Virus record (IMG/VR): IMGVR_UViG_3300010032_000001
Coordinates: 1 to 48,116 of that record
Origin: a virus
Direction: 5' to 3' (one strand)
Length of the DNA stretch: 48,116 bases
Positions within the stretch are counted from its first letter, which is position 1. Every line of letters starts with the position of its first letter. Made by a program: the position numbers and the translations under genes. Of the stretch, positions 124 through 18,312 are shown piece by piece. Under the pieces are notes generated by a model. That model saw only the letters and a list, made by a program, of their open reading frames with translations, was not told the origin of the DNA and did no database searches.

Positions 124-1757
124 AAGTAGGAACTTACAATCGTTATCGTATTCCTACTATGGTTGTTGCTGGTAATGGTGACCTACTGTTGTTTGCAGAG
201 GGTAGGGAATTAGGAGACCTTAACAAAGTAGATACTATTTACAGTAGAAGTACTGACAATGGGTTAACTTGGAGTAGCTCAGTTTTGGTCGCTGGCAGTG
301 CTGACAACACAGTTGGTAACCCTACGGTCATAATTGATGAAACTACTCAACGTATTCATCTTTTCTACGTATTTGAAGAAGAAGACCAGATATACAGATT
401 TAGTGATGACAACGGTTTAACTTGGTCTGCTGAGCAAAACCTTACTCCTACTTTGACATCTGGATTTTTTAACAGTATCTATATAGAATCAACCGGACGT
501 CGTAGATTTAGATGTGGTCCTGGCGGCGGTATTCAAATTAAAAATGGACCTTACGCAGGAAGACTTATTGCTTTAGCTTTTTATCGATTTGGTACCAGTC
601 CAGAAGATAGAGTAATCGCTTCCATTTATTCCGATGATAACGGTACTACTTGGTCTTTAGGTAATTCTACTACTTCTGGTGTCGAAGCTCATATAGCTGA
701 GCTAAGTGACGGTTCTTTAATTACGATTAATCGTAATCAAGAACTATTAATAAGTAGTCATAAAATTATTAATCGTTCTACGGACGGAGGAGTTACTTGG
801 GGACCTTATGACGTTGTAGATGGAGATAACGGTTTAGTTGAACAAGTTTGTCAAAACAGTATAGAGCGTATTTGGTTCGGTTCAGGTAACCAAAATATTA
901 TTCTTGGTACCTCATTAGATTCTACTAATACTGACGACCGTAGTGTTTTGTACTCTACTGTCAGTTTAGATGATGGTTCTAGTTGGCCTATTACTATACG
1001 TCGGTTACTTTGGAAATACTGGGGTGCTTACTCAGAGGCTATTCTTCTACCCGACGGTTATATCGGAATTGTCTGCGAAAGGAATCAGAATTTCTTTGTA
1101 CAGAACATTGACTTCACTCGTGTATCGTTAGCTTGGTTACTAGCTCAGAATAATGACCAATTCTACGAAGATTTACAAGGTATATCTCCATCACCTGAGA
1201 TAACAGGAAACTGGAGCAATTTTAATGCTTCTACTAGAAATGGCTGGACTGCAGACGGTAATCAAATAGGTCAGTATTTCAATGCTATTAATAGTAGACG
1301 CAGAATGACTAGTGCTACTACGTTTACAAATGGCGCATTGGGGAACAATCCTGCGGAATTGAGAATTCGCTTTGCTCTTCGTATAGACCAATTTGCTCCT
1401 GAGAGTACTAGTAGTACCAATGCAGGATTTAGACTTAGTTGCGTAAGAGACAATGAACGTTCTTACTTTCTAATTGCTGACAATGGAATTCATCATCGTA
1501 CTAATGCGGATGCTTATCCTTTGATTACTTCTATTACTACAGAAGTTTTTCGTTGGTACGAGTGGCGTTTGGATATCAACTTTAATACTAACGTAACTAC
1601 AGTGTTTAGAGATGGTGTTCAGATAGGAACCTACCCGATTGACACTATTGGGTTTAGTGCTCAATACATTCGTTTTCTCGCTGCTGGAGACAGTTCAGCT
1701 ACAACCTATTGCCAGTTTTCTATAAAGTGGGCGGCTCTAGATGACAACCTTTCTTGA
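1..1757 (+). CDS. Virion-associated GH33 sialidase-like BNR beta-propeller with a C-terminal ConA/LamG-like domain (3' part of the gene starting at 47630; 706 aa in total)
   Basis: YRIP motif (nt 144-155) followed by LLLFAEGRE. Five Asp-boxes S-x-D-x-G-x-T/S-W at nt 249-272, 402-425, 630-653, 777-800 and 963-986. Same frame as 47630..48116 through the overlap. Confidence 0.8.
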   Translation, partial: NTASDSHATRVFGNPFTRPVLAPSWQHVFKGIQGTYDTDPEVGTYNRYRIPTMVVAGNGDLLLFAEGRELGDLNKVDTIYSRSTDNGLTWSSSVLVAGSADNTVGNPTVIIDETTQRIHLFYVFEEEDQIYRFSDDNGLTWSAEQNLTPTLTSGFFNSIYIESTGRRRFRCGPGGGIQIKNGPYAGRLIALAFYRFGTSPEDRVIASIYSDDNGTTWSLGNSTTSGVEAHIAELSDGSLITINRNQELLISSHKIINRSTDGGVTWGPYDVVDGDNGLVEQVCQNSIERIWFGSGNQNIILGTSLDSTNTDDRSVLYSTVSLDDGSSWPITIRRLLWKYWGAYSEAILLPDGYIGIVCERNQNFFVQNIDFTRVSLAWLLAQNNDQFYEDLQGISPSPEITGNWSNFNASTRNGWTADGNQIGQYFNAINSRRRMTSATTFTNGALGNNPAELRIRFALRIDQFAPESTSSTNAGFRLSCVRDNERSYFLIADNGIHHRTNADAYPLITSITTEVFRWYEWRLDINFNTNVTTVFRDGVQIGTYPIDTIGFSAQYIRFLAAGDSSATTYCQFSIKWAALDDNLS

Positions 1758-2385
1758 AATAGTTAATAAAGTATTTCTTCGTATAGGAGAGCAGAGAGTT
1801 AACTCTGTAACTTCTAATGAAGTATCGATTCTTTGCGGACAAAACGTTAATACTGCTTTAGTTCAGTTAGCACAGGACTACCCCCACTGGCCTTGGCTTA
1901 GTGGAATTTATTCTGCTAACTCTTGGAATGTGCAAGAAGCTACTCTTGACCCTACCGCTCTTTCTATTCGTTTTATACGAGATGCAGGAAGCACTCTTAG
2001 GTTAGAGTATGAGACTGAGGAAGTGTTCTTTCGTAGGCAAGCTCAAGCCTACACAGGAACTAACGGTGGAGCACGTTATTACACTGTTGTAGGAGAAAAG
2101 TTTTACCTACATCCTTACCCCAATGATTCTGAATCTCAGTTAAACATTAAGTTCCACGGTTCTTTTCTACCTTCTAAATTAGTAGCAAACACCGATGAAC
2201 TACCTGTTTCTATGAGAGATGAGGACTTGATTATTATGAGAGCTGCTATGAACATGGCGGCGGACCATCTAAAGAATGTAGATATCTACAGAGTGTATTC
2301 AGCTGAGTACCAGAGATTACTTCAATCTGCTAAGGCAAGACTAGTTACTGACATAACAGATAAGCGTAGGAGTGCGATCAGATGA
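1741..2385 (+). CDS. Tail tubular protein A / adaptor-like (T7 gp11 position)
   Basis: 214 aa, just upstream of a very large tail gene. N-terminus MTTFLEIVNKVFLRIGEQRVNSV resembles podovirus gp11-type N-termini. Call rests on synteny only. Confidence 0.45.
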   Translation: MTTFLEIVNKVFLRIGEQRVNSVTSNEVSILCGQNVNTALVQLAQDYPHWPWLSGIYSANSWNVQEATLDPTALSIRFIRDAGSTLRLEYETEEVFFRRQAQAYTGTNGGARYYTVVGEKFYLHPYPNDSESQLNIKFHGSFLPSKLVANTDELPVSMRDEDLIIMRAAMNMAADHLKNVDIYRVYSAEYQRLLQSAKARLVTDITDKRRSAIR

Positions 2386-5300: not shown

Positions 5301-5525
5301 AATACTCAAGATGCTTTAGGATTTCAGGATTTATACTGGGACTTAGGTAGCTTTGATTCTGACTCTAATGCTCGTCAGTTAGATAAGTATTCTAGAATAC
5401 AGGCTACTATTAAGGGTTCTAACAACTTCCTTCAAGTGTTCTTCTATACTTATGGAGAAGCTAATGTGTTTGAGTTGATTGCATATCAGATTGTAACTGG
5501 TAATCTTGGTCGAGGTAACTTCTAA
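2382..5525 (+). CDS. Tail tubular protein B / nozzle-like large tail protein
   Basis: 1047 aa. ATGA overlap with the upstream gene. N-terminal LAGGLNTISGDL...VVTRNG pattern resembles T7 gp12-type proteins. Synteny supports the call. Confidence 0.45.
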   Translation: MTFSGESRQPRLADDVALVRNLAGGLNTISGDLAIPEGDVPYLFNVDINDAGHVVTRNGTQYDGTFDAIGNDPTSIAGAVSVSYTTKAGTKFSVIKVGVNLYVYWMEASTATEVSRSDLITAKLNVWSSAASTVKPDYVITNENASRIIFASGVNVPVQLQFIESSQVVTEGAAFTTVTVTSSRYANAAVENVFVWIDGTRKSVSNVSFNTGTNELTITIDSTAAGTYAVEVVFITWQWLCEGILLEGSQVYESVTRFHSTESDKTIAVPTNLIRNYQSLEDENILYPLIPYLSSNRGAYYTYDATRKPDTVDEFVFSNGIAYDSTLNSDEIVPGVSHLTFGAVRDNVMGEIDPPEEVHLVRAVRLDFDDDSDTIEVGNLLVLLNGTAATRITSSTIGSNTTTWNQSYVARTVPVSAVNFYNSSSIVGDTSTSPAKYITFDGSEAVGIPPTSVIEIIHARVPTNFVGSNANATVNQLAPGDGYAVPAHGIQEHASYSLGSFPRAVTLYQGRLVFGGFPADPLKVITSEVIGTSRTGFDFVNYSIAWENLEQTDPVVTRISTNQNNASITALNTLIGNIFVFTVEKTFRVSGGSSVLSPTSVLVQEVADVGAVNAQSVIGIENTLVFLSLAGVYRVAPSLELGDFNVTLLSVKVNTEFKNRNNIIAGWLVFDRINNRLFAGIDNFGDSDVATELYVLNFNRNAWFRYSTYYGYWYCAGASFIDLDNPFIVFLMPTSRNNAMGLDLVFYPYFYATDFTRVQTPFNLTDSGYDEFPLIEDSITVSNNEVRDTYNISNFRLSEFSGINDVTVILDGEEIQFGTDFRKIDEGQLDITRVFSIGASLVLRPRNTLGRYPILLYLDNIFQEDLTLSFDSVNNIVTVSLNASDEDTIARIGTSIPCFYSTPVLVRNSITGRKLSTDLYAVLLNANFQDKFREADVNTSTSQDASSLIGNWQRVVNVSVSKVISAAEIDFVPNTQDALGFQDLYWDLGSFDSDSNARQLDKYSRIQATIKGSNNFLQVFFYTYGEANVFELIAYQIVTGNLGRGNF

Positions 5526-6613
5526 TGGCAGTCGCACCAGTCATAGGCATAGGTCTTAGTGCAGTAGGAACTGTTAGCGGTATTAGCCAAGCTAACAGAC
5601 AAGCTAACGCACAACGCCAATCTATTGAAGCTCAACGTGTAGCTGCTCAACAACAATACGAGTTGAACAAACAGAGATTTGAATACTCTCGTCAAAATGC
5701 TGAGCAGACGTTTGCACGTGAGACTGTCATAGCCAACGAGATGCGTCAGAATGCATTTCAGAATCTAGAGATACAGACTATTCAACAGTCTCTGGCTAAT
5801 AGTGCTCAGGATATGCAGCAGGCTCAGCAGCTAGCTGGGCTTGACCAACAAGTTAATCAGTTAATTGCTAATGCTGCCAATATTCGAACACAGACAGGTC
5901 AGGCTAACGTAGAAGATTTAACTACTCTAGCTGCTATATTCACAGGCAGCGACCAAGCAGGACGCAACTTTATACAACGATTAGCTTCTACTAACCAGGA
6001 CCCAGCTATCGCTCAACAAGTACTAGAAGATTCTTTATTGCAACAGATAGCCAACTTTCAGGCTACTCAGGAAACTGTAACTACTAGAAATAGAAGAGCA
6101 GACATAGAAGCTGGAGGACTAGAAACACAGGCTGATTTAACTAGCAGGTACAGAGATGCGGTAAGCAACTTCTTTACTGCTCAGAACACAACCAACAGGC
6201 AGTACCAAGAGTTCGTAAATCAACAAGCTCCTTCTCTACTTAATCTTCAGCATGAACGTAATCTTGCAGCTTTAGAAGCAGCTAAGTTCTCTAACCAGGC
6301 TGAACTGAACATAGCTAATCAGAGTGCAGCTATCCAGTTTGCTAATCAGAACAGACAGCTAGATGCACAAGCTTCAAGTATTCAGAGTCCCAATATTTTA
6401 GGTTCGTTAGTAGGACTAGGAGCACAGAGCCTTTCTCTACTTAACTTTGGAAGCCAGCCACAGCAACGATCATTCAGCTTTGCTAATTCTGGGCCAACGT
6501 TTAGTCCCACAACTAGTTCATTTCAAGGCATTAACGATATAAACTTTTCTACCTCTGGACAAAGCTTTGGACCTGTAATAACAGACTTCACTGGTAGCAA
6601 CATATTCGGATAG
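5525..6613 (+). CDS. Internal virion / ejection protein candidate (Q/N-rich coiled coil, hydrophobic N-terminus)
   Basis: 362 aa. TAATG overlap with the upstream gene. N-terminal MAVAPVIGIGLSAVGTVSGI, then Q/N-rich low-complexity sequence. Sits in the position of T7 gp13-14. Confidence 0.4.
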   Translation: MAVAPVIGIGLSAVGTVSGISQANRQANAQRQSIEAQRVAAQQQYELNKQRFEYSRQNAEQTFARETVIANEMRQNAFQNLEIQTIQQSLANSAQDMQQAQQLAGLDQQVNQLIANAANIRTQTGQANVEDLTTLAAIFTGSDQAGRNFIQRLASTNQDPAIAQQVLEDSLLQQIANFQATQETVTTRNRRADIEAGGLETQADLTSRYRDAVSNFFTAQNTTNRQYQEFVNQQAPSLLNLQHERNLAALEAAKFSNQAELNIANQSAAIQFANQNRQLDAQASSIQSPNILGSLVGLGAQSLSLLNFGSQPQQRSFSFANSGPTFSPTTSSFQGINDINFSTSGQSFGPVITDFTGSNIFG

Positions 6614-6617
6614 AACG

Positions 6618-8351
6618 ATGACTGACGCAGCACGCACACCACAACGTAGACCAGTAGGACAAGCAGGGGCTCCTATTCAGATAGCAGGTATTAACGGTAT
6701 CGGCCAGCTACCTCAAGTTGAATTACCTGTAGCTCCTACTGTTCAGATAGAAGACAGGACTCAGGACTTTCTAGCTCGTAGTCAGCAGTCAGTTCAGAAT
6801 GCTTTTGATTTACAGCAGCAAGCTATCGAAAGTACTGCTCGTGCTGACGTAGCTGAAGCTCAGGCTAGAGGTAGAAATAACTTTGCTTCTAATTTCTCTG
6901 GTGTTGTTTCTGCTATTCAATCTGGTATGCAGATGTACCAGGAGGTTCAGGCTGGACGTAGAGAACAGGAGAGCCAACAGTTAGCTGCTCAGTTTGAGAA
7001 TGAGTTGAGACAGCGGGTGGTTCAGTTACATCGTGACGTAGGACAGAATGCATCAGACGAAGGGCTTATTCCTACCTACACAGCTATGCTGCGTCAGCTC
7101 CGACAGCAGTATGCTGGACGATTAGATCCTCAAACTCTTCAAACTATCTCTAACATCGGTTGGGACGCTATCACTGAAGTACAAAGGGAACAGGGTGCTC
7201 GTTGGGTTAACGAACTCGAAGACACTCAAGCTCAAGGAAGAGAGCTTCGTCTCAATGAGCTGCGTCTGCAGATTGCTCCTCTGATTAATCAACTTACGCA
7301 TGGTAGTATTTCTGTTGACCCTAATGCTGTAACTGATCAGATCAATCAGCAGTTGGGGTCCTATTTGTCTCAGCACGACATGTCTGGTATAGATGCCCTT
7401 ACTACTCTTAACGGTATCTATCCTTTTGTTATCAGTGCTTATGAGACAGCAGGAGCAGATGCTACTAGGCTCACAGCTCAACAGGGTATCATCACTTCTG
7501 TTCTACAAGAAGCTGCTACTATTAATTCTCAATTATCAGGAAACAAAGAGAGTAGAGATGCTGCGTTCGCTCAGTTACAACTACTTTTAAACAACGCTGG
7601 AATTCAAGGAGTAACTCTCACTGATATTTTTCAGACTGATGTTCAGAGGCTACAACAGAATACTACTATTCAAAATAATTTAGATTCTCTACGTAGAGCA
7701 TCACTAGCTAATCCTCGACAATCTCCTGAGTATCAAAGAGCTACTGATATTCAGAACAGAGCTATTGCACTCAACTGGTTCAACAATCCTTCTCAGAGTG
7801 CTAGAGAAATTGAGGCTGCTAGTGGCGCTGATGCTACCCTAGATCAACGCACTCAACTCAGAATCTATAATGGTATTCAAGAGGGGCGTTCTCGCATTAG
7901 AGAACTGGAAGACCAGAACGGTCAGCTTCTACAAACACAATACGAATCCTTAGCTGAGATTGAAACTATAGCTCGTAAGCTTGACCCTACTGGAGAACTA
8001 GGACCACCTACAATTGCTATCGATTATATTCGTAGACTAGTAGAACTTAATACTGATAATGCTGTAGAGCGCGGAGCTATTAGCGCTACGGAAGCTAATC
8101 GCTTACAGGAGTTAGAACGTTCTGTATTCACTGATGCTCAACGGCAGATAGATGCCAATACCAGAGAGATAGGAAACATCAACAGTGACTTTCTTTCTAT
8201 CGGTATTAACATGGTTAACCCTGCTGATACTACTCAGATAGATAGGCAGTTAGCTGAGATTGAACCTATTCTCCAGGATGCTTTACAACAATCCGACGCT
8301 CTGAGTCCACCAAATTTTCAATTGGGCCTACCTCCACTGCCCCGCAGGTAG
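6618..8351 (+). CDS. Frame-0 product: 577-aa Q-rich coiled-coil internal virion protein
   Basis: Long ORF ending at TAG 8349-8351. Composition is similar to 5525..6613. Confidence 0.6.
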   Translation: MTDAARTPQRRPVGQAGAPIQIAGINGIGQLPQVELPVAPTVQIEDRTQDFLARSQQSVQNAFDLQQQAIESTARADVAEAQARGRNNFASNFSGVVSAIQSGMQMYQEVQAGRREQESQQLAAQFENELRQRVVQLHRDVGQNASDEGLIPTYTAMLRQLRQQYAGRLDPQTLQTISNIGWDAITEVQREQGARWVNELEDTQAQGRELRLNELRLQIAPLINQLTHGSISVDPNAVTDQINQQLGSYLSQHDMSGIDALTTLNGIYPFVISAYETAGADATRLTAQQGIITSVLQEAATINSQLSGNKESRDAAFAQLQLLLNNAGIQGVTLTDIFQTDVQRLQQNTTIQNNLDSLRRASLANPRQSPEYQRATDIQNRAIALNWFNNPSQSAREIEAASGADATLDQRTQLRIYNGIQEGRSRIRELEDQNGQLLQTQYESLAEIETIARKLDPTGELGPPTIAIDYIRRLVELNTDNAVERGAISATEANRLQELERSVFTDAQRQIDANTREIGNINSDFLSIGINMVNPADTTQIDRQLAEIEPILQDALQQSDALSPPNFQLGLPPLPRR

Positions 8352-9703
8352 CGCCCTTAGCAACACAAGAAGGGCTTCAGTATCCTTTTAGTGGTGGGCA
8401 AGGAGTTACAATTACATCTCCTTATGGCAATCGAGTTCATCCTGTCTATGGTGATACTCGATTTCATGCTGGTATAGACATAGTTCCTGATGGAGATGAC
8501 TGGACAGTAAGAACTGTAGCAGGAGGAGAAGTCACCCATGTTATCCCTGATGTTAGTGGTTACGGTCAGGTCGTTATTGTCCGTACTCCTAATGGTTTTT
8601 CTGAGCAGTTTGCTCACCTCGGAGAGATGCACGTAAGGGTAGGAGAAGTGATTCAGCCTGGTGCATCGGTAGGTCTAATGGGTGCTAGTGGTGTAGGTAC
8701 TGGTCCTCATTTGGATTTTGCTGTTTACAAACCCGGGGCACAAGTACTCACTCCTGGTGCTTACGAAGAAGGTACGGTAGATCCGATGAGTTACCTTCGT
8801 ACCATTCAACCTACTGTTCCTACTCCTAGAGGACTGGGCGCACCAGGGAGACAGGCTGATCAACTGCCTGACCCCAATACTCCATTAAGTCGAGTTCAGA
8901 GCCTACTAAGTGAAATCGATAGATACTCCCAATCAATCGCAGGAAATGGTGGAAGAGTTAGAACCGGTAACTCTTTCTCTACTCCACAATCTGTATTCAA
9001 CAATGCAAACCCTCAACAAACGTCTAGGGCAGCACTCAGTCGAAGTGCGTATAACTTTCCTAACAACCCCGAACACAACTATGGATATCAGGCTATTGAA
9101 AGCGATAGGGAATATAGTAGAGCTTTAGCTTCCTACTCCGATAGGCTTAACATTCCTGCTCAATGGTTAGCTGACCTTATCGACTTTGAGACCGGTGGAA
9201 CTCACTCTCCTTCTATCACTAACTCATTAGGTTGTGTTGGTGCCCAGTTCTGTCCTGGTGGCGGATTGTCGGATGTAGCTCAAGAGATGGGAGTTAACGA
9301 TACTGTAGCCGCTAGCCGACTAGCTAACATGTCTATGGGCCAGCAGCTTCATTGGGTCTGGTACTTTCTAGATAGGTATAGTAATGGCGGGGCGGATATC
9401 AATACGATAGAAGATTTGTATGCTCTGTGGAATGGTGGACCCAGTGCTCTACAAATGACTCCTGAGCAGAGGCGTAGAGTGAATGACATAGGAGTAGACT
9501 CCAACGGTCATCGTTATGGTGGGCATTTGACCGAACATTTTGAACGTTTGGGCCATAGAGTAGGACGTAGGTACGAATCTTCATACGATAGACTGCAATC
9601 CAACAGAGGCAATGTACACGAAAGACCTTACCCTGGTTGTGCTGAGTGTAACAGAATGATTGCTCACTTCGGTGTGGTTATGCCGCATTATGCAGATGCT
9701 TAA
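6618..9703 (+). CDS. Predicted -1 frameshift fusion (6618..8318 joined to 8318..9703; 1028 aa): coiled-coil, M23 peptidase and lysozyme/transglycosylase-like domains; virion peptidoglycan hydrolase
   Basis: M23 motifs PYGNRVHP, HAGID (8465-8479), FAHL and GPHLDF (8708-8716). The first two lie upstream of the first in-frame start codon (8627). C-terminal DFETGGT...LWNGGP resembles a lysozyme-like fold. Confidence 0.6.
8312..8356 (+). promoter_or_regulatory. -1 programmed ribosomal frameshift cassette (slippery heptamer plus hairpin)
   Basis: A AAT TTT at 8312-8318, in phase with frame 0. 5-nt spacer caatt. Hairpin 8324-8333 / 8346-8356 (6+4 bp, bulged C8352, 12-nt loop) contains the frame-0 TAG. 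Confidence 0.6.
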
Positions 9704-9941
9704 GAAACCAGATGTGAGTTTTGACATAGAAGACTTAGAAGAACTTTCAAAAGCTATAGCTTCTAGTGCTATAATGATAAGTGAAGCTTGGCAACAAATC
9801 ATTATTGCTACTCTTCTTCTAAGTTTTGTAATAGTTGTTGGTACAGGAGCATTGGTTATTAGAAATCATTTACTTCTACTTAATGTACTAGAAGAGGTAG
9901 AGGAAGAAGACATAATACGTAGGTACAAGCTAGGAGATTGA
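9690..9941 (+). CDS. Small membrane protein (one TM helix, acidic C-terminus)
   Basis: ATG 9690 overlaps the end of the hydrolase gene. Hydrophobic stretch IIIATLLLSFVIVVGTGALVI, then EEVEEED. Confidence 0.45.
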   Translation: MQMLKKPDVSFDIEDLEELSKAIASSAIMISEAWQQIIIATLLLSFVIVVGTGALVIRNHLLLLNVLEEVEEEDIIRRYKLGD

Positions 9942-9943
9942 TT

Positions 9944-12900
9944 ATGGCTAATAGAATTCCTGATAATAACGATTTGCAATTAGATCAACAAAGGAGAAGA
10001 ATTCCAAGTGCTCCTGCTGTATCGTCTGAGGGAGCAACTATTGAGCCTATTGCAGGTCCTGATATCACTGCTGGTCCGATTACTGCCCCTCAACAATCTT
10101 CTATTACTTCTAGTTCTGCTGAGTCTCTTATTAACACTCAGCAGCCAATTCCTTTTCGCCCCATTCACTATTCTTTACCATCTATTCCTGACTTTCTAGC
10201 TACTCAAGTACCAGGAGATTTAGAACAGGCCGAGCAATTTAACCAACAAATTCAAGCTCTTAATAATACTCCTGACGTTTATTCTGTAGGCCAACTGCGC
10301 AACAGATTACAAAGTACATTTAATCTTAATCGTCATTCTTCTACTCTTGCTCCTACTGATAGAGGGTTACCGTCCGAGATAGATGTATCCATTGAACAAG
10401 CTAATACTCGTCGTGCTTTACAAACTCAGAATGCTTCGGTTGCTCCTTCCGCTGATAGAGGGCTAGTAGGCGTTGCTCGTTCTCTTAACGAAGGACAGCC
10501 TTTTACTTCTGCTAGTAACCAGAGTGTACGTGATTTCTTCCTTAATACATTAGGTGTAGATGTTGCTCCTGTTGCCACGGAGAGAGAAGAAACAGAACCT
10601 ACCACTATGCTCGATAGAGTAATAGCTGGTGCAGTAAATGCTACTAGTGCTTTAATTCCTGGAGCTGCTGGTGTGATAGGGCAGTTAGTGGCACCTGGTG
10701 CTGACGATGTTGGAGCAGGTCGCCGTATATTTAGAGATGCTGGGCGCATAGCTAACAATCGTATACAGCGTAGAATAGAAGAAGTAGGGTTAGGACAATT
10801 CCTTAGTGAGAATACGTTAGGTCGTATTACTCCTGGACGCACAGTAGAGAACGTAGCTCGTAATATTCGTAGACAGTACGGCACTCCTTCTGCTGCTATT
10901 AATTCTACCATTCAGAACTACACCTTGGGTATAGGTGGATTTGAGAATGGTAGATTAGTGTTGGGAGCAGGCGATGTAGCTACAGACAGAGAAGGATTTG
11001 AACCGTTCGAATCTACAGATACTACTGGAGTTACTTCTATTCTATCAAGGGTCGCAGGTAGTACAGAACAAGAGTCCATTAGTCTTCCTACCGATTCTAG
11101 TTTTATAGGAGAGTTAGCTAATACTTCTCCTGACCTTCGTAACCTACTCAGAGATTTAGAACCCGTTGTTAATGAAGCTGGAGAGATCGGTTTCAATCCT
11201 TTCTCCGGACACTTCGGTGAGTTCGGTAGTGCCGGTTCTTTGTCTGGTTTACTATGGTTAGCTAACCTTCCTGAGGGCGTGGTTACCGGAGCACTATACG
11301 ATATAGCAGACCTAGCTAGGCATGTTACCTACGACACTAGGGTAGGAAGGTTATTAGGTCGTGTGTCTCCTATATTCAATGAGCAATTACCGGTAGATAA
11401 CGCTAGACGTTTAGATCTACTTGGTGCTGCAGTAGGAAGAGACTACGGATTTACTCAACGCTACACTGAGGATAGATACCTATCATTCATCGGCAATCCT
11501 GGATTACGATTTATTCCTAAGCCTGCTCAGATTGCTGCTGGTTTTATAGCTGACGCAGCACTAGGAGGATTCACTGATTTTGCTCTAACTGACCCTGTAT
11601 TTGATTTAATTACTCGTGGTTCGAGAAGAGCTACTCAGAATGTAGCTGAAGAGTTGGTTGAAACTGCAACTACAGTAGCTCGTAGAGAAGTAGACGATGC
11701 TGTTACTCGGTCAGTGGACGACGTTCTAAGAAGGAACCAATTACCTGAGCAGATTATAGAACGTATTGATAGAACTGTTAACAGAGTAGTAGCTGACTCT
11801 GCTCCTATTGATAGAGCAAGAGTTGCGGTACCTGATGTTGATACAGCTATTCGTAGGTTCAATCTCGATAGTGATACTTCTTTTTCTCTTACTACTTCTA
11901 TTCGTAGAGCAGGAGACGCACAACTTGAAATACCTTTTGTTCGTCCGTCGTTAGTAGGAGAAGTTGCTGAAACCATTGCTCCACTAACTAGAAGAATAGA
12001 TGATGTGTTCATTAGTGGTGAAAGAGTTACTCGTAGACTACGCACACTCGACGAGCAGGTAGACAGAATACAGTCTCTTATTAGTTCTCAGGCTGCCAGA
12101 AGAAACTCTACTGAGATTGTCGCTCCTGCTGACGAAGTAGCAGAACAACTTACTCTTAACTACGAACAATCTTTGGTTAACGTTCTAGAAGAACAGACTA
12201 CTCTACTAAGAGGTGCATCATCGCAGGAGATTGAACTTTACTCTCAGAATCTTTTGCGTCGAGCTGACGAAATTACAGATAACGGTTTTATTATTCAGGA
12301 GAATGCTGATGAAGTTCTTGACACTCTTGCTCCTAGGATTTCTGTTGAGCAGATTACTCCAAGAGCCACTGACTCCACCACTGAACTTCTTTTCGCGTAT
12401 CGTTCGGACCCTTACTCGTTAAACGATTTAGATGTCTTTAGTGTTCGTCGAAATGACCAGACAGTTTCTGAGGTAGCTAATCTATGGGGTTTACCTACTC
12501 CTCCGGTAGGTGACCCATCTACTCCTATAGGAGAACTAAGAAACCTTTATCGTTCTACTTCTCTTGAGCAACGATACCCTCGTTTACTAGGACGGTACGG
12601 TAAACCTATTTCTACTAACATAGAAGCTCCTATCAAAAGAATTGACTTTAGTTCTCAGATAGACCAGCCCTACACGCTTAGTGCCATAGCTCAACCTAGA
12701 GCACGTACTTTGCCTGTAGTAGAGGATAACGTACCGCCACAGATTCGTAGACAGGAAGTTAGTAGAGAAAGAAGAAGGTTAGTTTCTCTACAGAACCGTG
12801 CTGGACGTACGATGTCTGAGATTCAGAGAAACCTCTACGATAACAACGTTGATAAAGTATTCGAATTAGAAGACAGGCTTCGTAATATCTCTTCTGAGAT

Positions 12901-14947
12901 TAACGAGCTATTTGCTAATAACCCAGACATAGCTATAGAAGAGATAGTAGAGAATTTACCTACCTCTGTACGTCCTACAGGTAGAGAAAGTAGGGCATTA
13001 AGAGATAGGTACGCTTTAGCTGAACATAGATTTCACTATGAGAATGGTATTCTCAAATCTATGGAAGCAGACTTAGCTGATGTAGATAGGCTAGTTAAAC
13101 AGCAGCAGGATGTTGTAGCTAGATTACCTCAATTGGAACGGTACTCACCTGCTAATGAACTAGCTACTCGTAGAAGAGAAGGTTTATCTACTCGTACAGC
13201 TACAGGGGAAGTAGCTCAGCCTGGCCCTGACTTTACTATCCCTGAACTAGGAGACACAAGAACTACTACTATTACTGCTCTACAACAGAACCCTGAGCTA
13301 GAAGACTTCACCGTAGAGCAACTTAGACGGGCTGTTGAGAACAGTCCTGACTTAGAATTAGAACCCTCTAATAGAATGTTAGTTCGAAGAGCAGAGGGTG
13401 GTGTTGACCCTGATGTTGCTCGTTATGCTGCATTTCTAGACGAAGACGAGGTGTTTAATGGGTTGCAACCTGGTTCGTTGGAAGCGGTCTCTAGGTCAAT
13501 TCTAAACCAAGAAGACCAAGTTTACCCTGTTAGTTTCTCTAATGATGTTGAACTAGTTCTAGGCAATGATGCTTTCAATGAGATTACTATAGATTTCTCT
13601 GTGGGTGGAAGGTTTGTAAGAACGAACCGAAGGCCTCTGAGCGTTAAGAAAGGTCTTTCAGAGATGAAATCTTTTCTTAATGACTTTATGAAGATGAATC
13701 CTTCCTACGATTATAAAGTAACTGGAATAGCATTCACTCCTAGGGAACCTTCGTTGTCTACTGTTCTTGAAAGATTCCGGGTCGAGGGAATGACTGATGA
13801 AGTAGCCAGGGACTTCACTAGTAGTATCGGAGAAGTCTATTCGAAGTACACTACTTATTATAAGTACGGATTCAGACTGGACGATGGTTCAGACGCTGGT
13901 CGCCGTTTGTCTATTCAAGACTACGCTGAGGCTCTTCAAAGAGACGTAAATCAACCTATGACCTTTGGGTTCAATCCCGAGGAGGGTCTTCAAGGATTAC
14001 GTAACCAGCCATCAGTAGGTGACTACTACCATGGTACTAAAGCTACGTCACTAGATGTTCCTGCATTCTCTCCTACTAATGAACTAGGAATGGGGTTATA
14101 TTTGTCTACTGACATTAACGTAGCTAGACGGCATGCGAGAGCCATACCTGCTGAAGATTTAGTAGATGTAGGAGATCTAACGAATAGGTTTACCAATCAA
14201 GGAAGCATTTACTCTATTGCTATTCCTAACAGAAATCAGGTTACTGATTTTGGTAGCATTGACTTTGAACAGTTTAATGTGATTAACATTAACCTCATGT
14301 CTAACGATATGATTAATGTAGCCCAGGAGGAATTTCGTAGAGTAATAGAAGATTTGATTCCTGAGATATTACCTCGTTGGAGCAGTTGGTCTAGACGTCA
14401 TCGTGACATGGGTGAGTGGTGGAACTACATTCGTAGTCAGTACATTAGGCTACGAGGTGTTGACTCTATAGACGAGTATACGGAATTCGCTCAACGTATT
14501 CAAACTAGTCTGACCGATATAGGAATAGACGGATTACAGGATGGCAACAACTTGGTTGTTCTTAATCCTAGTAAGATATCTATTCGTCCTCCCGTTGTTG
14601 ATGAGACTTCCACTGGTAGCATTGCTGAAGGTCTACTCAACCGTTATGCTGCAGACCTAGACTTACACAATCGAGTTAACAACACTACTACCGAAGCTAT
14701 TCTAGAAACTGACCGACTGGCTATTGACCAGTACATTCGTAATCAATTAGCTGACTCTGTAGCAGAGCAGGAGAACATAGCTATTCGTGCTACTCGTTCT
14801 TACAATGAGATGGCCGATAGAATGGAACGTTCAGTTAATGTTGACCGAAGTCGTAATGTTTCTATAGAGATAGATGAAGCTAATCGAAATGCAGTCAATA
14901 ATTACAATCGGGTAAATCGTACACCTAACCTACCAACGGAGTGTTAA
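9944..14947 (+). CDS. Very large (1667 aa) internal virion / polyvalent-type protein with a candidate ART-like module near the C-terminus
   Basis: GGAG (9933-9936) sits 7 nt before ATG 9944. Uninterrupted ORF. YYHGT (H codon 14030-14032), GLYLST (Y codon 14099-14101) and DFEQF (E codon 14267-14269). Confidence 0.6.
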   Translation: MANRIPDNNDLQLDQQRRRIPSAPAVSSEGATIEPIAGPDITAGPITAPQQSSITSSSAESLINTQQPIPFRPIHYSLPSIPDFLATQVPGDLEQAEQFNQQIQALNNTPDVYSVGQLRNRLQSTFNLNRHSSTLAPTDRGLPSEIDVSIEQANTRRALQTQNASVAPSADRGLVGVARSLNEGQPFTSASNQSVRDFFLNTLGVDVAPVATEREETEPTTMLDRVIAGAVNATSALIPGAAGVIGQLVAPGADDVGAGRRIFRDAGRIANNRIQRRIEEVGLGQFLSENTLGRITPGRTVENVARNIRRQYGTPSAAINSTIQNYTLGIGGFENGRLVLGAGDVATDREGFEPFESTDTTGVTSILSRVAGSTEQESISLPTDSSFIGELANTSPDLRNLLRDLEPVVNEAGEIGFNPFSGHFGEFGSAGSLSGLLWLANLPEGVVTGALYDIADLARHVTYDTRVGRLLGRVSPIFNEQLPVDNARRLDLLGAAVGRDYGFTQRYTEDRYLSFIGNPGLRFIPKPAQIAAGFIADAALGGFTDFALTDPVFDLITRGSRRATQNVAEELVETATTVARREVDDAVTRSVDDVLRRNQLPEQIIERIDRTVNRVVADSAPIDRARVAVPDVDTAIRRFNLDSDTSFSLTTSIRRAGDAQLEIPFVRPSLVGEVAETIAPLTRRIDDVFISGERVTRRLRTLDEQVDRIQSLISSQAARRNSTEIVAPADEVAEQLTLNYEQSLVNVLEEQTTLLRGASSQEIELYSQNLLRRADEITDNGFIIQENADEVLDTLAPRISVEQITPRATDSTTELLFAYRSDPYSLNDLDVFSVRRNDQTVSEVANLWGLPTPPVGDPSTPIGELRNLYRSTSLEQRYPRLLGRYGKPISTNIEAPIKRIDFSSQIDQPYTLSAIAQPRARTLPVVEDNVPPQIRRQEVSRERRRLVSLQNRAGRTMSEIQRNLYDNNVDKVFELEDRLRNISSEINELFANNPDIAIEEIVENLPTSVRPTGRESRALRDRYALAEHRFHYENGILKSMEADLADVDRLVKQQQDVVARLPQLERYSPANELATRRREGLSTRTATGEVAQPGPDFTIPELGDTRTTTITALQQNPELEDFTVEQLRRAVENSPDLELEPSNRMLVRRAEGGVDPDVARYAAFLDEDEVFNGLQPGSLEAVSRSILNQEDQVYPVSFSNDVELVLGNDAFNEITIDFSVGGRFVRTNRRPLSVKKGLSEMKSFLNDFMKMNPSYDYKVTGIAFTPREPSLSTVLERFRVEGMTDEVARDFTSSIGEVYSKYTTYYKYGFRLDDGSDAGRRLSIQDYAEALQRDVNQPMTFGFNPEEGLQGLRNQPSVGDYYHGTKATSLDVPAFSPTNELGMGLYLSTDINVARRHARAIPAEDLVDVGDLTNRFTNQGSIYSIAIPNRNQVTDFGSIDFEQFNVININLMSNDMINVAQEEFRRVIEDLIPEILPRWSSWSRRHRDMGEWWNYIRSQYIRLRGVDSIDEYTEFAQRIQTSLTDIGIDGLQDGNNLVVLNPSKISIRPPVVDETSTGSIAEGLLNRYAADLDLHNRVNNTTTEAILETDRLAIDQYIRNQLADSVAEQENIAIRATRSYNEMADRMERSVNVDRSRNVSIEIDEANRNAVNNYNRVNRTPNLPTEC

Positions 14948-14949
14948 TC

Positions 14950-17900
14950 ATGGTTGAAGCTTTTGAGTGTGGTATTAAAGCAGTAGACGATGTACTTCAA
15001 CGTAGGTTTAAAGATTTACCTGAGGAACGTCAGTCTGACATCAATCGTAGAATTGAACACAGTCTTCGGCAGCTTAACAGTGTAGCTACGACAGCTAAGG
15101 ATAGTGGATTAAGTAGAGAAGCTAGAGCACATGCCGAGGATATTTTTCGTAACATACTTTCTACCGCTTCTCTTAGTCACATAAGTCCTGGAGCTACCAA
15201 AGGATTAGCTCATCACTTGGCTATGAATATCGGACTTAATCGAAGAGGTCTGGGTTTACTAGATGACTTCACTGACAGTGGTGCAGTAGCTAACATCATT
15301 AAATCTCTAAGACGTAGGGGTGGTGGAGAGATTCACCAAATGTTAGCACATATTCATTTTATTGATAGAAACATTATAGCTGACCAACGTCTTGATGCTT
15401 TAAGAAGAACTCTAAACATTACTAAAGACGATTGGGACCGCCTCAAACTAGATGCTCTTGAGATCGGTATGCAGCCGTTTATGCAGAAAGACTTAGGTGT
15501 CGTAGGTCCTGCTGGTATAGAGTTTCTTCGTGGTAAACAGCAACGATTCTTTCGTAGGCTAGAGGAGTTAGGAGTAACTGATTCAGCTGCTGACCTACTA
15601 GCTAAAGAAACTACTGAAGTAGCTAATACGTACAGAGAAGTATTAGAAGTTATTCGTACGTTTGGTGTTAACACTAACGATGCTGATGGACTCATAGCTT
15701 ACCTACCTCGCTCTGTTTCTCCTGAAACCATTCGTAGATTTCAATGGCACAAACTAGAAAATGGTAACTACAACATTGGAGGTTTCGGTGGAGTATCCAC
15801 TGAATCCCTTCCCTCAGTTTTCACCAAATCCAGAACCTCTAACCAATTCATTGTTGAAGACAAGATTGTCTTGGATGAACTCATACGAGCTGTGGATGAA
15901 GACATCTACTCCTCTCTTGGTGTGGATGGAATTGATGGACTTATTGAAGACACAGGAAAACTCACAAGGGGATTGGTCGAGACTCTCGATAGACGCGCTC
16001 CCGAACTCTTTGACGGACTAGTAGACGTAGGAATGATATCTAAAATTCCTATGACTTCTACTGAATTATTTGAGTATGCTAAACTACGATACGAACTACC
16101 ATTTAAAACAATAGATGAGTTCATGGCTACTGACTTTCGACAAGTAGCTACTCTTTATCGCAATCAGACTGAGCGATTAGTAGGTAGAAGTGTGATGTCT
16201 CACTTCACTGCTAAGTCTGCTATCGACGGTGGATGGGGAATTACTGAGGCTCAACGACTAGCTGAACCAGAGAAGTACAAGAACTGGGTACAGTTATCGT
16301 CCCCTGTGGCTGGTAGAAGTGATGTAGTTATTACTGCTGCTGAGGCTCAACGCTTCGGCATGCCTGCGTTTCAGCATTCTCATGTGTATGTTCATCCTGT
16401 GGTAGCAGATATCTTTAAAGCTCAGACTCAGGTACTTAGTCGTCCTGATCAGTTGGGGATACTAGGAAGACTAGCTAACGATTTGCGAACTACTTTCTCT
16501 ACCATGGCTTTAGCCTCCAGTGGATTTGTATTTCGTCAGCTTTACACTCCTATCTTTCAGGTATGGGCTGCTGGTGGTAGAATAGATACCTATGCTGCTG
16601 ACATCACTAGGTCTATAGCTCACATCGCTGGTCTTAAGAGTAGAGGATTATCACTAGACCAGTTCGATGGGTTCATGGATAACACTAGAAAAATCTATAG
16701 AGTAAACAATGAACTAGTTACCGAACGTTCTCTATGGAACATTATGAGACGTAGAGGATTTGTAGAAGAAGTACTTCCCTGGTTGGGTGCCCCTGCTAAT
16801 AGCCGTAACTTCAAACCTAGTGCTGGATTTCTTACTGCTACTGAGAGACAAGTTCGTTACCTTAATGACGTAATTAATGCCTATCCTAAACTAGGAGCAT
16901 TAGGAACAGTAAGCGAGTTCGCTTCCACTATCTCAGAAGGAAGTAGAAGATTTGGTGAGAGAGCATTTCATTGGTTCGGAGCTACTAACGTACTGTTTGA
17001 TAACGTAGCTAGGTTCTCTACCATCAAAGCGCTTACTTCTACCACTAACACTAATCGAATAGTGAAAGCTGCTCAAGGTAATTTCAACAATAATCTAGGG
17101 TTCGAGCAAGCTGTAGAAAGAGCACAAAGGTATTTCTTTAACTACGATGATACAGGAAGAGTCGATGACTTCATGGCTCACATCCGTCCCTTCTGGGTGT
17201 TTCAGAGTAGAAATACTTTTGCTATCTTCAAGATGATGACGAGAGAGCCTGGTAAGTTCATGGCTTATCAACGACTCTTCGCTGCCATCAATGAACCTGA
17301 GCAAGGTGATGAACCTCTACCCTACGGAGCTATGCCTGATTGGATGAGGGGTGAGTCTCCCATGTTCTGGATTCAGAGGGACGATGAAGGTAATCCTACT
17401 GAAGCTTGGACTCTGCCTCGTTCTATGTTTGACCCTATCGCTGAGGGTACAGGTGCTGTAACTGAGGGACTAGATGGTCTACTAAATTACTTTGGTATCT
17501 GGCCTGATGGTCAATTCCCTTCTAGAGGAATAGATGATAGGCTGAACGATTTACCCTGGAACAATACTCCTACCAATCGAGCACTAGAAGATCAGGTGAG
17601 TCAAGCGTTCGGTCACTACAAAGCAGCTTACTCCTTAATTACTGGACGTAACCCCGATACCGGTAGAGAGTTCATAAGAGAAGGAGATACTACCAGGTTC
17701 TCTAATTTCCTTGGTATGGAAGTCTCTCCTATGACTCAGTACATAGCCGAGAATTTGTTTCCTATTCTTCGTAACGTTAACCGTGCTAATCCTTTCTACA
17801 TGTTCGGTTACCCTCCTGAGTTTGATACTAAGACTGGAGAAGTAATCGACATGGGAACTCCTTCTTGGTTTGGTACTTCAGGAACAGGAAGACCTAGTGC

Positions 17901-18312
17901 TGACTTTCGTAGCTGGTGGCAACGTTCTCTTTCTACTGTAGGTTTTAACATTTATCGTATTGATATCCTGGAGTCAATGGGATATCGAGAGACGGATATT
18001 CTATTTGCTCTACGAGAAGGAGAGACAGCCCTAGAGAAAAAGCGTAGAGATATCCGTCTTCTTACCAACGAACAACAGTTTAATAGAGAGGTAGGAGAAC
18101 TGAGAGAAATGGAAGCTTTGCATGCTGCACTGATGATTGATTACGAGAACATTAGAGCATGGGCTGACAATAGAGGATTAGATTATTCAGCAGCTATTCG
18201 TTTTGCTAGAAAAGAAAACATCGCGGCTGAACAATTGAGAGGACTAACACCGGACGAAGAAAGAAAACTACTAGAAAAAGTGTATGGACCTCTAGAAAAT
18301 TTTAGGAGATAA
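14950..18312 (+). CDS. Large (1120 aa) virion / ejection protein candidate
   Basis: ATG 14950 lies just after the upstream TAA. Position matches T7 gp15/gp16-type genes. I recognised no motif. Confidence 0.5.
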   Translation: MVEAFECGIKAVDDVLQRRFKDLPEERQSDINRRIEHSLRQLNSVATTAKDSGLSREARAHAEDIFRNILSTASLSHISPGATKGLAHHLAMNIGLNRRGLGLLDDFTDSGAVANIIKSLRRRGGGEIHQMLAHIHFIDRNIIADQRLDALRRTLNITKDDWDRLKLDALEIGMQPFMQKDLGVVGPAGIEFLRGKQQRFFRRLEELGVTDSAADLLAKETTEVANTYREVLEVIRTFGVNTNDADGLIAYLPRSVSPETIRRFQWHKLENGNYNIGGFGGVSTESLPSVFTKSRTSNQFIVEDKIVLDELIRAVDEDIYSSLGVDGIDGLIEDTGKLTRGLVETLDRRAPELFDGLVDVGMISKIPMTSTELFEYAKLRYELPFKTIDEFMATDFRQVATLYRNQTERLVGRSVMSHFTAKSAIDGGWGITEAQRLAEPEKYKNWVQLSSPVAGRSDVVITAAEAQRFGMPAFQHSHVYVHPVVADIFKAQTQVLSRPDQLGILGRLANDLRTTFSTMALASSGFVFRQLYTPIFQVWAAGGRIDTYAADITRSIAHIAGLKSRGLSLDQFDGFMDNTRKIYRVNNELVTERSLWNIMRRRGFVEEVLPWLGAPANSRNFKPSAGFLTATERQVRYLNDVINAYPKLGALGTVSEFASTISEGSRRFGERAFHWFGATNVLFDNVARFSTIKALTSTTNTNRIVKAAQGNFNNNLGFEQAVERAQRYFFNYDDTGRVDDFMAHIRPFWVFQSRNTFAIFKMMTREPGKFMAYQRLFAAINEPEQGDEPLPYGAMPDWMRGESPMFWIQRDDEGNPTEAWTLPRSMFDPIAEGTGAVTEGLDGLLNYFGIWPDGQFPSRGIDDRLNDLPWNNTPTNRALEDQVSQAFGHYKAAYSLITGRNPDTGREFIREGDTTRFSNFLGMEVSPMTQYIAENLFPILRNVNRANPFYMFGYPPEFDTKTGEVIDMGTPSWFGTSGTGRPSADFRSWWQRSLSTVGFNIYRIDILESMGYRETDILFALREGETALEKKRRDIRLLTNEQQFNREVGELREMEALHAALMIDYENIRAWADNRGLDYSAAIRFARKENIAAEQLRGLTPDEERKLLEKVYGPLENFRR

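Follow-up and report, generated by a model that had tools for sequence, protein, structure and literature searches.

The gene at positions 6618 to 9703 of the virus record IMGVR_UViG_3300010032_000001 (IMG/VR), which represents a cyanophage-like podovirus, is the counterpart of gp28 of cyanophage A4, a pre-ejectosome and DNA-ejection protein, and it is very probably decoded in two ways, with a predicted -1 frameshift at 8312-8318 giving rise to a second, longer product. The whole stretch of DNA analysed, hereafter the window, comprises 48,116 nt. The sequence around the shift site suggests that the shift is ribosomal. The mechanism as such is ordinary, while its use in the gp28-type ejection gene family appears to be unreported.

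An earlier note on this DNA had described a frame-0 ORF (6618..8351) that overlaps a -1 frame lacking a start codon, and all of its coordinates for the ORF, the overlap, and the first start could be verified. The -1 frame is open from 8264 and shares 88 nt with the frame-0 ORF. Its earliest ATG, GTG or TTG lies at 8627, which is 315 nt from the beginning of the slippery heptamer and 162 nt past the peptidase HxGxD codons starting at 8465. Conceptual translation of the codons from 6618 to 8318, followed by the -1 part from 8318 to 9703, reproduces the product sizes given in that note, namely 577 aa and 1028 aa (567 + 461), as well as the junction ...SPPNF/SIGPTSTAPQ. The predicted junction peptide is SPPNFSIGPTSTAPQ, written across the shift as ...SPPNF-SIGPTSTAPQVAPLATQEGLQYPF.... 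The features are listed in the table.

Table. Features of the predicted frameshift gene in the window (positions are those of the 48,116-nt record)
Feature	Positions	Strand	Remarks
Short isoform, frame-0 ORF	6618..8351	+	577 aa; predicted to be all-helical; corresponds to the N-terminal half of gp28-type ejection proteins (ORF list, translation)
Candidate slippery heptamer A_AAT_TTT (AAATTTT)	8312..8318	+	In phase with frame 0; Asn-tRNA would occupy the P site and Phe-tRNA the A site
-1 frame part after the predicted shift	8318..9703	+	461 aa plus stop
Spacer CAATT, slip site to stem	8319..8323	+	5 nt; equal length in 12 of 12 aligned sequences
Putative stimulatory hairpin, 10 bp	8324..8356	+	5' arm 8324-8333, loop 8334-8345 (12 nt), 3' arm 8346-8356, C8352 bulged
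Loop bases GCCCC, stem 2 of a candidate H-type pseudoknot	8339..8343	+	Could pair with 8372-8376
Frame-0 stop TAG	8349..8351	+	Within the 3' arm of the hairpin
GGGCT, downstream partner of candidate stem 2	8372..8376	+	Complementary to the loop
Peptidase_M23 domain	8459..8746	+	Pfam PF01551 at 64 bits (cut-off 28.7); M23 structures also matched by profile
Lytic-transglycosylase-like domain	9080..9470	+	Approximate limits; profile against PDB

Ahead of any start codon, the -1 frame has a pN/pS of 0.18, which indicates purifying selection, and over the whole -1 part the ratio is 0.16-0.25 across a deep clade. These values rule out a decaying gene whose peptidase half is no longer expressed, and a pseudogene was rejected on the same ground. 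The single-ORF homologue P0006 can be aligned with the conceptual 1028-aa fusion over its entire length, including the junction (E 3e-124). At the junction P0006 reads GCA AAT TTT AGT GCA GGG CCA (A-N-F-S-A-G-P), in agreement with the predicted NF/SIGP. The residues F-S-x-G-P, located across and just past the slip site, are conserved and are the same in the single-ORF homologue. Removal of one base from the T run of the fused reading yields the split form. This relation, along with the single ORF of the cultured relatives, would also be expected from a sequencing or assembly indel, either through loss of a T from TTTTT or through an error in the CCCC run, with the true gene being continuous as in A4 and Pf-WMP4. 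The same frame relation is, however, present in 11 other contigs, together with varied slip sites and compensatory changes in the stem. Since a whole clade cannot inherit such an error, the indel was rejected and retains next to no probability. A 1-nt assembly error, named in the earlier note as an outcome that would overturn the frameshift, is effectively refuted by the split that independent assemblies from other samples share.

These 11 independent metagenome relatives each show the 0/-1 split, and in each the slip site occupies the same codon (L004-L009 and L048-L055, from differing samples and assemblers), and their contigs originate from separate projects, namely TARA/ENA, Logan/SRA, and JGI. 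Their identity to the window is 30-78% in the N-terminal part, where the homologues measure 572-604 aa, and 48-81% in the C-terminal part. The set of relatives was enlarged only by searching with a profile of the C-terminal domains, and a protein search with the N-terminal profile yielded no further relatives. No match to the gene was returned by megablast among 50,697 phage records. The IMG/VR protein search likewise gave none, and the 31 matches of a DNA-pattern search were all unrelated chance hits. Among JGI metagenome contigs, protein alignment found nothing and the pattern GGGCCTA-N20-24-GCCCTTAGCAAC gave four chance matches. The phylogenetic tree, in which Saffermanviridae served as outgroup, groups the split sequences in a single clade whose sister is the single-ORF L010; because of this grouping, the split arrangement is regarded as old and maintained. 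In related phages the lytic half is ancestrally fused within one ORF. The frameshift therefore splits an old fusion and does not create a new one, contrary to the earlier proposal that it delivers the lytic domain onto the virion protein.

Canonical in-phase heptamers occur at 17 of the 11,801 codon positions in the ORFs of the window, with 0.04 expected in the 29-codon overlap, and the heptamer at 8312 is the sole one of the 17 that leads into a long -1 ORF. It is unchanged in five close relatives, and at the same codon the more distant ones have A_AAT_TTC, G_GAT_TTT or A_ACT_TTT. The G_GAT_TTT variant is carried by L009, L048, L049, and L052. A_ACT_TTT, the form present in L053, is poorly suited to tandem slippage. 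The region in which a shift could take place is narrow, with a -1-frame stop seven codons 5' of TTT in L007 and a frame-0 stop four codons 3' of TTT in L009. In E. coli, A_AAG sites shift better than U_UUU-type sites, and this ranking may differ with the host's own set of tRNAs. A_AAU_UUU belongs to the most efficient class of E. coli heptamers, as H_HH.U_UU.Y motifs rank near the top there (PMC4066793). Shifting is known at G_GA-type heptamers, G_GAU_UUU among them (PMC5009743).

The heptamer, the 5-nt spacer, and a hairpin that buries the frame-0 TAG had all been described in the earlier note, and sequence inspection and folding bear them out. The hairpin has a folding energy of -16.5 kcal/mol (z -2.9), and 3 of 200 shuffled sequences are equally stable. 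A longer stretch of 89 nt folds unremarkably (z -0.98), and only the local hairpin stands out. Across the 12 sequences its pairing is kept in 97.5% of cells, compared with at most 54% at slid control positions, and both sides have changed in 5 of the 10 pairs. The covariation score of 0.365, which derives from a few lineages, compares with 0.145 in shuffles, and none of 500 shuffles attains the observed value. Folding of the single-ORF homologue L010 reveals no such hairpin. Rfam holds no family for the element, its one match being a chance lncRNA (E 0.53). Complementarity between the loop and downstream bases is suggestive of an H-type pseudoknot. In 10 of the 12 sequences, loop positions 6-10 could pair with downstream positions +16..+20, the location being identical in each, and in the L009 clade ACUCC/GGAGU stands in place of ACCCC/GGGGU. 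When complementarity was compared with shuffled sequences, this second stem was significant in no individual sequence, though its position is consistent.

Conservation is concentrated in the same region. Nucleotide identity amounts to 0.90-0.97 over 8312-8386, compared with 0.46 directly upstream and 0.5-0.8 elsewhere, and the peak extends to ~8386, about 30 nt past the hairpin. Synonymous divergence is low in the overlap (pS 0.10) compared with the sequence directly downstream (0.58-0.71). The alignment of the relatives, in which heptamer, spacer, and stem are kept and the flanks drift, favours the programmed -1 frameshift originally proposed. Transcriptional slippage on the T run could also restore the frame; a TTTT homopolymer is present at the site, and some phages and IS elements are generally known to use slippage (review PMC5009743). 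Four T's are nevertheless well below the ~7-9 or more in runs established to slip, and a covarying RNA hairpin at a spacing of 5 nt is a hallmark of ribosomal shifting. Slippage was rejected on these grounds and, taken together with gene decay, is judged highly improbable.

The remaining alternative, itself improbable, consists of two separate genes, with the M23 and transglycosylase part being made alone by a start near the junction or by termination-reinitiation and the hairpin serving coupling or mRNA stability. Gene callers did report the peptidase as a separate ORF of 358-460 aa, often without the catalytic HxGxD. An ATG or GTG is located 9-18 nt past the heptamer start in four relatives. 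In L004 and L049 this is an ATG at 9 nt, and in L009 and L048 the sequence AGGA is followed after 6 nt by GTG and shortly afterwards by an ATGA stop/start overlap. In L052 an ATG follows some 54 nt past the heptamer start, and in L008 and L055 the sole start candidates are GTG or TTG farther downstream. Of the 12 sequences, 8 have ATT, ATG or GTG as the codon that follows the slip-site Ser, which is compatible with a start, but L051-L055 carry GCA, GCC or TCA there. Furthermore, the window and L005, L006, and L007 contain no ATG, GTG or TTG in the -1 frame ahead of HxGxD, and L051 and L053 have no start near the junction, their earliest one cutting off conserved M23 sequence. The possibility that homologues carry their own peptidase start, raised earlier as an argument against the frameshift, thus applies to L004, L009, L048, L049, and L052, but not to the window, L005-L007, L051, and L053. 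Initiation at 8321 would be hindered by the 10-bp stem 1 nt away. The conserved F-S-x-G-P lies upstream of most candidate starts and matches the single-ORF homologue, and two separate genes offer no reason for a conserved slip site that is in phase. Independent or coupled initiation could contribute in L004, L009, L048, and L049. For the gene as a whole, frameshifting remains the preferred reading. In every member of the clade the peptidase has been truncated or mis-started by gene callers, and a join at 8318 corrects the annotation of the lytic module.

According to the frameshift model, most or some ribosomes would translate the frame-0 ORF to its stop and release the all-helical 577-aa protein. 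Other ribosomes would pause with A_AAU_UUU in the P and A sites, hindered by the hairpin 5 nt further on, perhaps as part of a pseudoknot. The Asn and Phe tRNAs would then move back by one base, and the -1 frame would be read to 9703. The additional 461 residues of the resulting 1028-aa product would comprise an M23 endopeptidase and a lytic-transglycosylase-like domain. Both products are presumably packaged in the virion.

The protein fused in this manner had been described as a coiled-coil virion protein joined to an M23 peptidase. The peptidase is supported by its Pfam match, with the lytic-transglycosylase-like domain additionally present, and the N-terminal part is more exactly the predicted helical-bundle half of an ejection protein resembling A4 gp28. 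A profile of the C-terminal alignment matches A4 gp28 (9k2v_E) with E 2e-144 and the 'lytic transglycosidase' 9udh with E 3e-20 in PDB. The M23 domain contains HxGxD, the conserved FAHL histidine, and the first of the two His in HxH. The second motif reads H-L-D, with the second His being Asp in the window clade, L009, and L010, compared with H-L-H in Saffermanviridae. The N-terminal sequence profile matched nothing in PDB. An AF2 model of this part is all-alpha with low confidence (pLDDT 61, pTM 0.36), and Foldseek with this low-confidence model returned E<1e-3 only for chains a and A of A4 gp28 (9k2v), at low TM-scores of 0.25-0.30. P0006 serves as a bridging homologue aligned along the full length. 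The gene order of the window, with a gp29-like inner protein, the split gene, and a ~1700-aa gp27-like protein, is as in Pf-WMP4, A-4L, and LPP-1. The ORF at 5525..6613 gives a weak match to T7_gp14.

The closest comparison is offered by the Saffermanviridae orthologues A4 (A-4L) gp28, Pf-WMP4 gp33, and LPP-1 g30, which form the middle layer of the pre-ejectosome. A nozzle, an inner protein of ~360-380 aa, this gene, and a protein of ~1700 aa are common to these phages and the window. The total length of ~1030-1060 aa is of the A4 gp28 type, and in both the M23 and transglycosylase domains reside in the C-terminal half. Identity between the window and the A4 gp28 type is ~27% in the C-terminal part and ~16% in the N-terminal part. 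The cultured Saffermanviridae encode the protein in a single continuous ORF of 1007-1058 aa, whereas the window and its 11 relatives divide it between frame 0 and frame -1. In A4, gp28 is a decameric pre-ejectosome protein with transglycosylase and M23 domains, and its C-terminal 469 residues are visible in five subunits but not in the other five (PMC12002296). For gp28B, density is missing for Leu590-Ala1058 (PMC12002296). The shift at residue 567 of 1028 aligns within ~10 residues of Leu590, the order-disorder boundary between gp28A and gp28B.

Since the shift coincides with this boundary, the short and long isoforms may correspond to the two states of gp28 in A4, fixed genetically by frameshifting. 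The two-state link to A4 depends on density that was left unmodelled in a different phage and that may reflect simple disorder. A more speculative proposal, which is possible but rather doubtful, is an ejection machine of broken symmetry in which the 577-aa and 1028-aa polypeptides would occupy alternating positions of a decamer, with the shift efficiency (~50%, or corrected at assembly) setting the number of lytic domains per virion. If true, this would be the first recoding known to fix the subunit composition of a podovirus ejectosome, and the five unseen C-terminal halves in A4 would be dispensable or obstructive. The position of the shift site at the point where A4 gp28 loses order suggests how podoviruses may ration bulky enzymatic domains in the crowded capsid core.

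Several known frameshift systems share features with the window. T7 10A/10B also concerns a podovirus structural gene with a U-rich heptamer, and its C-terminally extended minor isoform is co-assembled with the short one. The T7 heptamer is G_GUU_UUC, and its stimulator is atypical and long-range (PMC5009743). The T7 extension is short and non-enzymatic, whereas that of the window would comprise 461 aa, include two lytic domains, and have a local hairpin as stimulator. The G/GT-type shift of lambda is likewise a conserved -1 event in morphogenesis genes, with a fixed ratio of short to C-terminally extended product (general knowledge; cited in PMC10885494). Its products are chaperones of long-tailed phages, carry no virion enzymatic domains, and are not homologous to the protein of the window.

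The window clade provides a conserved U_UUU-type -1 signal in bacterial viruses, with the variants A_AAU_UUU, A_AAU_UUC, G_GAU_UUU, and A_ACU_UUU and a covarying stem, and these natural heptamer variants are useful material for shift-site rules outside E. coli. G_GAU_UUU is a proven -1 site in pea enation mosaic virus 2 and dianthovirus, where a stop codon follows close behind (PMC5009743). These are RNA viruses of plants, and thus of eukaryotes, whose stimulators act at long range, and they show only that G_GAU_UUU can slip.

The earlier note knew of no frameshift that places a lytic domain on a podovirus internal protein, but a precedent had already been annotated. In Alteromonas phage vB_AspP-H4/4 (MF278336), a -1 frameshift is annotated for gp39/gp40, as a prediction only (PMC5658483). 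H4/4 is likewise a podovirus, and its proteins are unrelated to those of the window. There too, the predicted -1 shift links a peptidoglycan-degrading module with an internal virion or ejection protein. The topology is reversed, with the 161-aa lysozyme-like protein being the frame-0 product and A_AAA_AAG just before TAG adding the large gp16-like body.

In the window, the open reading frames (ORFs), heptamer, spacer, hairpin and product sizes were found as described in the earlier note (Table). The -1 frame had been called start-less ahead of the catalytic motif, and its first ATG/GTG/TTG indeed lies at 8627, 162 nt past the HxGxD codons, which begin at 8465. A slip at the heptamer joins 567 to 461 residues, which gives the predicted fusion of 1028 aa. 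The frame-0 TAG is located inside the 3' arm of the hairpin, which has a folding energy of -16.5 kcal/mol (z -2.9; 3 of 200 shuffles equally stable). Of the 11,801 codon positions in the ORFs of the window, 17 carry a canonical heptamer in phase; 0.04 would be expected by chance in the 29-codon overlap, and only the 8312 site among the 17 opens a long -1 ORF. An in-phase G_GGT_TTT is also present at 41891-41897, where the terminase large-subunit ORF begins. The fold 3' of it is strong (-22.6 kcal/mol over 50 nt), and its -1 frame closes after one codon, giving premature termination at most.

Table. Location of the frameshift elements and neighbouring genes (window coordinates unless a relative is named)
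Feature	Location	Strand	Description
Adaptor	1741..2385		SU10_adaptor
Nozzle-position protein	after adaptor		1047 aa
362-aa protein	between nozzle-position gene and split gene		weak T7_gp14 match
Frame-0 ORF	6618..8351	+	ATG to TAG, 577 aa
-1 frame	open from 8264	+	encodes ...KFSIGPTSTAPQVAPLATQEGLQYPFSGGQ...FHAGIDI...
Slippery heptamer AAATTTT	8312-8318	+	phase A_AAT_TTT on frame 0
Hairpin	8324-8333 with 8346-8356	+	5 nt past heptamer; one bulged C; 12-nt loop
Small ORF	9660-9941; L004 7092-7337; L005 7089-7319		
1669-aa protein, then tail-fibre genes	after split gene		

Although no start codon is present in the window between the frame-0 stop and HxGxD, the ratio of nonsynonymous to synonymous divergence (pN/pS) in this stretch is 0.18. 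A canonical start before the catalytic motif is absent from the window and from the metagenome relatives L005, L006 and L007, and in the relatives L051 and L053 the first start codons cut into conserved M23 sequence. The possible shift region is bounded by stops: in L007 the -1 frame has one 7 codons upstream of TTT, and in L009 frame 0 has one 4 codons downstream of TTT. The predicted junction N-F-S-I-G-P, with the shift between F and S, is matched by the single-ORF homologue P0006 (GCA AAT TTT AGT GCA GGG CCA, A-N-F-S-A-G-P). Alignment of the conceptual 1028-aa protein to P0006 runs unbroken from residue 15 to 1027 (E 3e-124). Independent or coupled initiation of the peptidase would fit the ATG or GTG that follows the slip site in L004, L049, L009 and L048, and the AGGA-N6-GTG and ATGA overlap of the last two; it is nevertheless improbable, as it cannot serve members without a start codon and leaves the in-phase slip site unexplained. 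The codon after the slip-site Ser (8321-8323 in the window) is ATT, ATG or GTG (I/M/V), all possible start codons, in 8 of 12 sequences, and AGGA lies 6 nt upstream of it in L009 and L048, so that some lineages may also initiate there.

Four homologues of the frame-0 product (N-part) in the protein database, at 66-77% identity, are all 577-579 aa long and therefore end at the same place. Further homologues are a 572-aa protein at 30% identity and P0006 with 1050 aa. The contigs of the N-part homologues derive from four TARA/ENA assemblies and a single Logan/SRA run. In every one, the frame-0 TAG, the -1-frame M23 ORF and an identical AAATTTT are present; the heptamer is followed by ~65 nearly invariant nt, in contrast to the freely drifting sequence directly upstream of it. 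A third search, with a profile of the C-terminal domain, yielded more distant members (48-59% identity). Six distant loci (L048, L049, L051, L052, L053 and L055) likewise place the peptidase ORF in the -1 frame and have a slip site at the corresponding codon. Across all relatives, this site reads A_AAT_TTT in the window clade and L055, G_GAT_TTT in L009, L048, L049 and L052, A_AAT_TTC in L051, and A_ACT_TTT in L053 and L054. In a rough NJ tree of the -1-frame parts (C-parts), the split sequences form one clade, with the single-ORF locus L010 as sister and Saffermanviridae as outgroup. The split is thus inherited across one clade, and since an assembly error is not heritable, the arrangement arose once and was maintained; the probability of such an error is close to nil. 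Gene decay is excluded by purifying selection across the deep clade.

Alignment of related phages, proposed earlier as a check, revealed that a slip site and the stem are kept while the upstream flank drifts. Over 8312-8386, pairwise identity at the nucleotide level is 0.90-0.97; it is only 0.46 in the 30 nt preceding the heptamer and 0.5-0.8 in other regions. Synonymous divergence, at 0.58-0.71 just downstream, is 0.10 in the part of the overlap that follows the heptamer. In 12 sequences, 97.5% of the cells of the 10-bp hairpin are paired, and in five pairs both bases have changed (C:G to A:U or G:U; C:G to U:A; C:G to G:C; U:A to G:C; A:U to G:C). The covariation score of 0.365, versus 0.145 in shuffles, was reached by 0 of 500 shuffles, and slid 3' partners reduced pairing to 54% or less. 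No comparable hairpin was found at L010 (z 0.09). Loop bases (window 8339-8343) could pair with a segment 16-20 nt past the stem, a complementarity that keeps its position in 10 of 12 sequences; in the L009 clade, ACUCC/GGAGU takes the place of ACCCC/GGGGU. None of the sequences was significant on its own against shuffling, so this pairing is only a candidate pseudoknot; if formed, it would explain why the conservation peak reaches ~30 nt past the stem. Transcriptional slippage at the T run is very unlikely, as four T are not enough for it and an RNA stem would play no part in such slippage.

The heptamer class H_HH.U_UU.Y, which includes A_AAU_UUU, is among the most efficient in E. coli (Sharma et al., PMC4066793), and G_GA variants, specifically G_GAU_UUU, count as -1 sites in other systems (PMC5009743). 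This makes classical tandem slippage the best reading of the site. Asn-tRNA and Phe-tRNA would slip in tandem at A_AAU_UUU, stimulated by the hairpin and possibly the pseudoknot, yielding an unshifted product of 577 aa and a shifted one of 1028 aa.

The gene has no DNA-level match among phage records. At the protein level, the M23 part shares ~27% identity with Saffermanviridae, podoviruses of filamentous cyanobacteria (Pf-WMP4, Pf-WMP3, PP, LPP-1, A-4L and CHP58), which encode the homologue as a single ORF (1007-1058 aa), whereas the window gene occupies two frames. Their gene order comprises the nozzle (tail tubular B), a ~380-400-aa gene annotated as internal protein in Pf-WMP4 and LPP-1, the gp28 homologue and a very large protein. 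The window has the same order around the split gene, with terminase, portal and capsid genes at its opposite end. Leptolyngbya phage Lbo240-yong1 (OM897575, 2129-5195) contains an intact 1022-aa gp28-like ORF that is unannotated in GenBank, which is an annotation gap without a frameshift.

The C-part matches Peptidase_M23 (64 bits), and its profile retrieves chain E of PDB 9k2v ('Internal protein', 1058 aa, E 2e-144) and, for the distal region, the lytic transglycosylase (LT) 9udh (E 3e-20). In cyanophage A4, gp28 forms a decameric middle layer, and its LT and M23 domains were proposed to digest peptidoglycan during infection (PMC12002296). The N-part has no sequence match in Pfam or PDB. Its AF2 model is all-helical with low confidence (pLDDT 61), and in a Foldseek search of 350,542 PDB chains this low-confidence model gave E < 1e-3 only for the two gp28 chains of 9k2v. 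The second M23 motif (8708-8716, GPHLDF) has H-L-D in place of H-x-H in the window clade, L009 and L010, and H-L-H in Saffermanviridae (alignment A3 of the C-parts); Asp may therefore serve as third zinc ligand, or activity may be altered. At the extreme C-terminus (about 9617-9690), H...CxxC...H is invariant in all aligned gp28-type proteins (H434, C441, C444 and H457 of the C-part) and looks like a small metal-binding knuckle.

A 565-aa ORF with BNR/sialidase-like repeats (60-1757; BNR_2, 3e-18) directly 5' of the adaptor gene is unusual cargo in a podovirus structural module. In the window clade, a conserved small ORF of 76-93 aa follows the peptidase gene and precedes the ~1670-aa gene; L053 and L055 have a 196-aa ORF instead, with an FHA-domain match in L055. 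In the TARA relative L008, an HNH_3 endonuclease ORF (2427-2900) is inserted between the nozzle and gp29-like genes, and the gp29-like ORF is shortened to 291 aa. The ORFs of the two largest structural proteins (9938-14947 and 14941-18312) have TTG and GTG as listed starts, and the second overlaps the 3' end of the first.

The ten gp28 subunits of A4 alternate between two states: gp28A, modelled over nearly the whole chain, and gp28B, for which the map lacks the last 469 residues (Leu590-Ala1058) (PMC12002296). The shift site, at residue 567 of 1028 and followed by the 461-aa C-part, aligns to ~597-601 of A4 gp28, the same domain boundary as that of the part missing in gp28B. Our hypothesis is that the short isoform is the counterpart of the gp28B state and the long one that of gp28A. 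If so, splitting the ancestral fusion by a frameshift would ration a bulky lytic module in the capsid core.

Programmed -1 frameshifts are well known in phage structural genes, such as T7 10A/10B and the G/GT chaperones. In literature searches, none was found to be reported for ejection proteins of the gp28 or Saffermanviridae-like type. The predicted frameshift in the window has strong comparative support, with a specific structural hypothesis attached. In the genome announcement of Alteromonas phage H4/4, a -1 shift at A_AAA_AAG was predicted to join a 161-aa lysozyme-like protein to a large internal virion protein (PMC5658483). This case, likewise only predicted, differs from the window in its reverse topology and unrelated protein.
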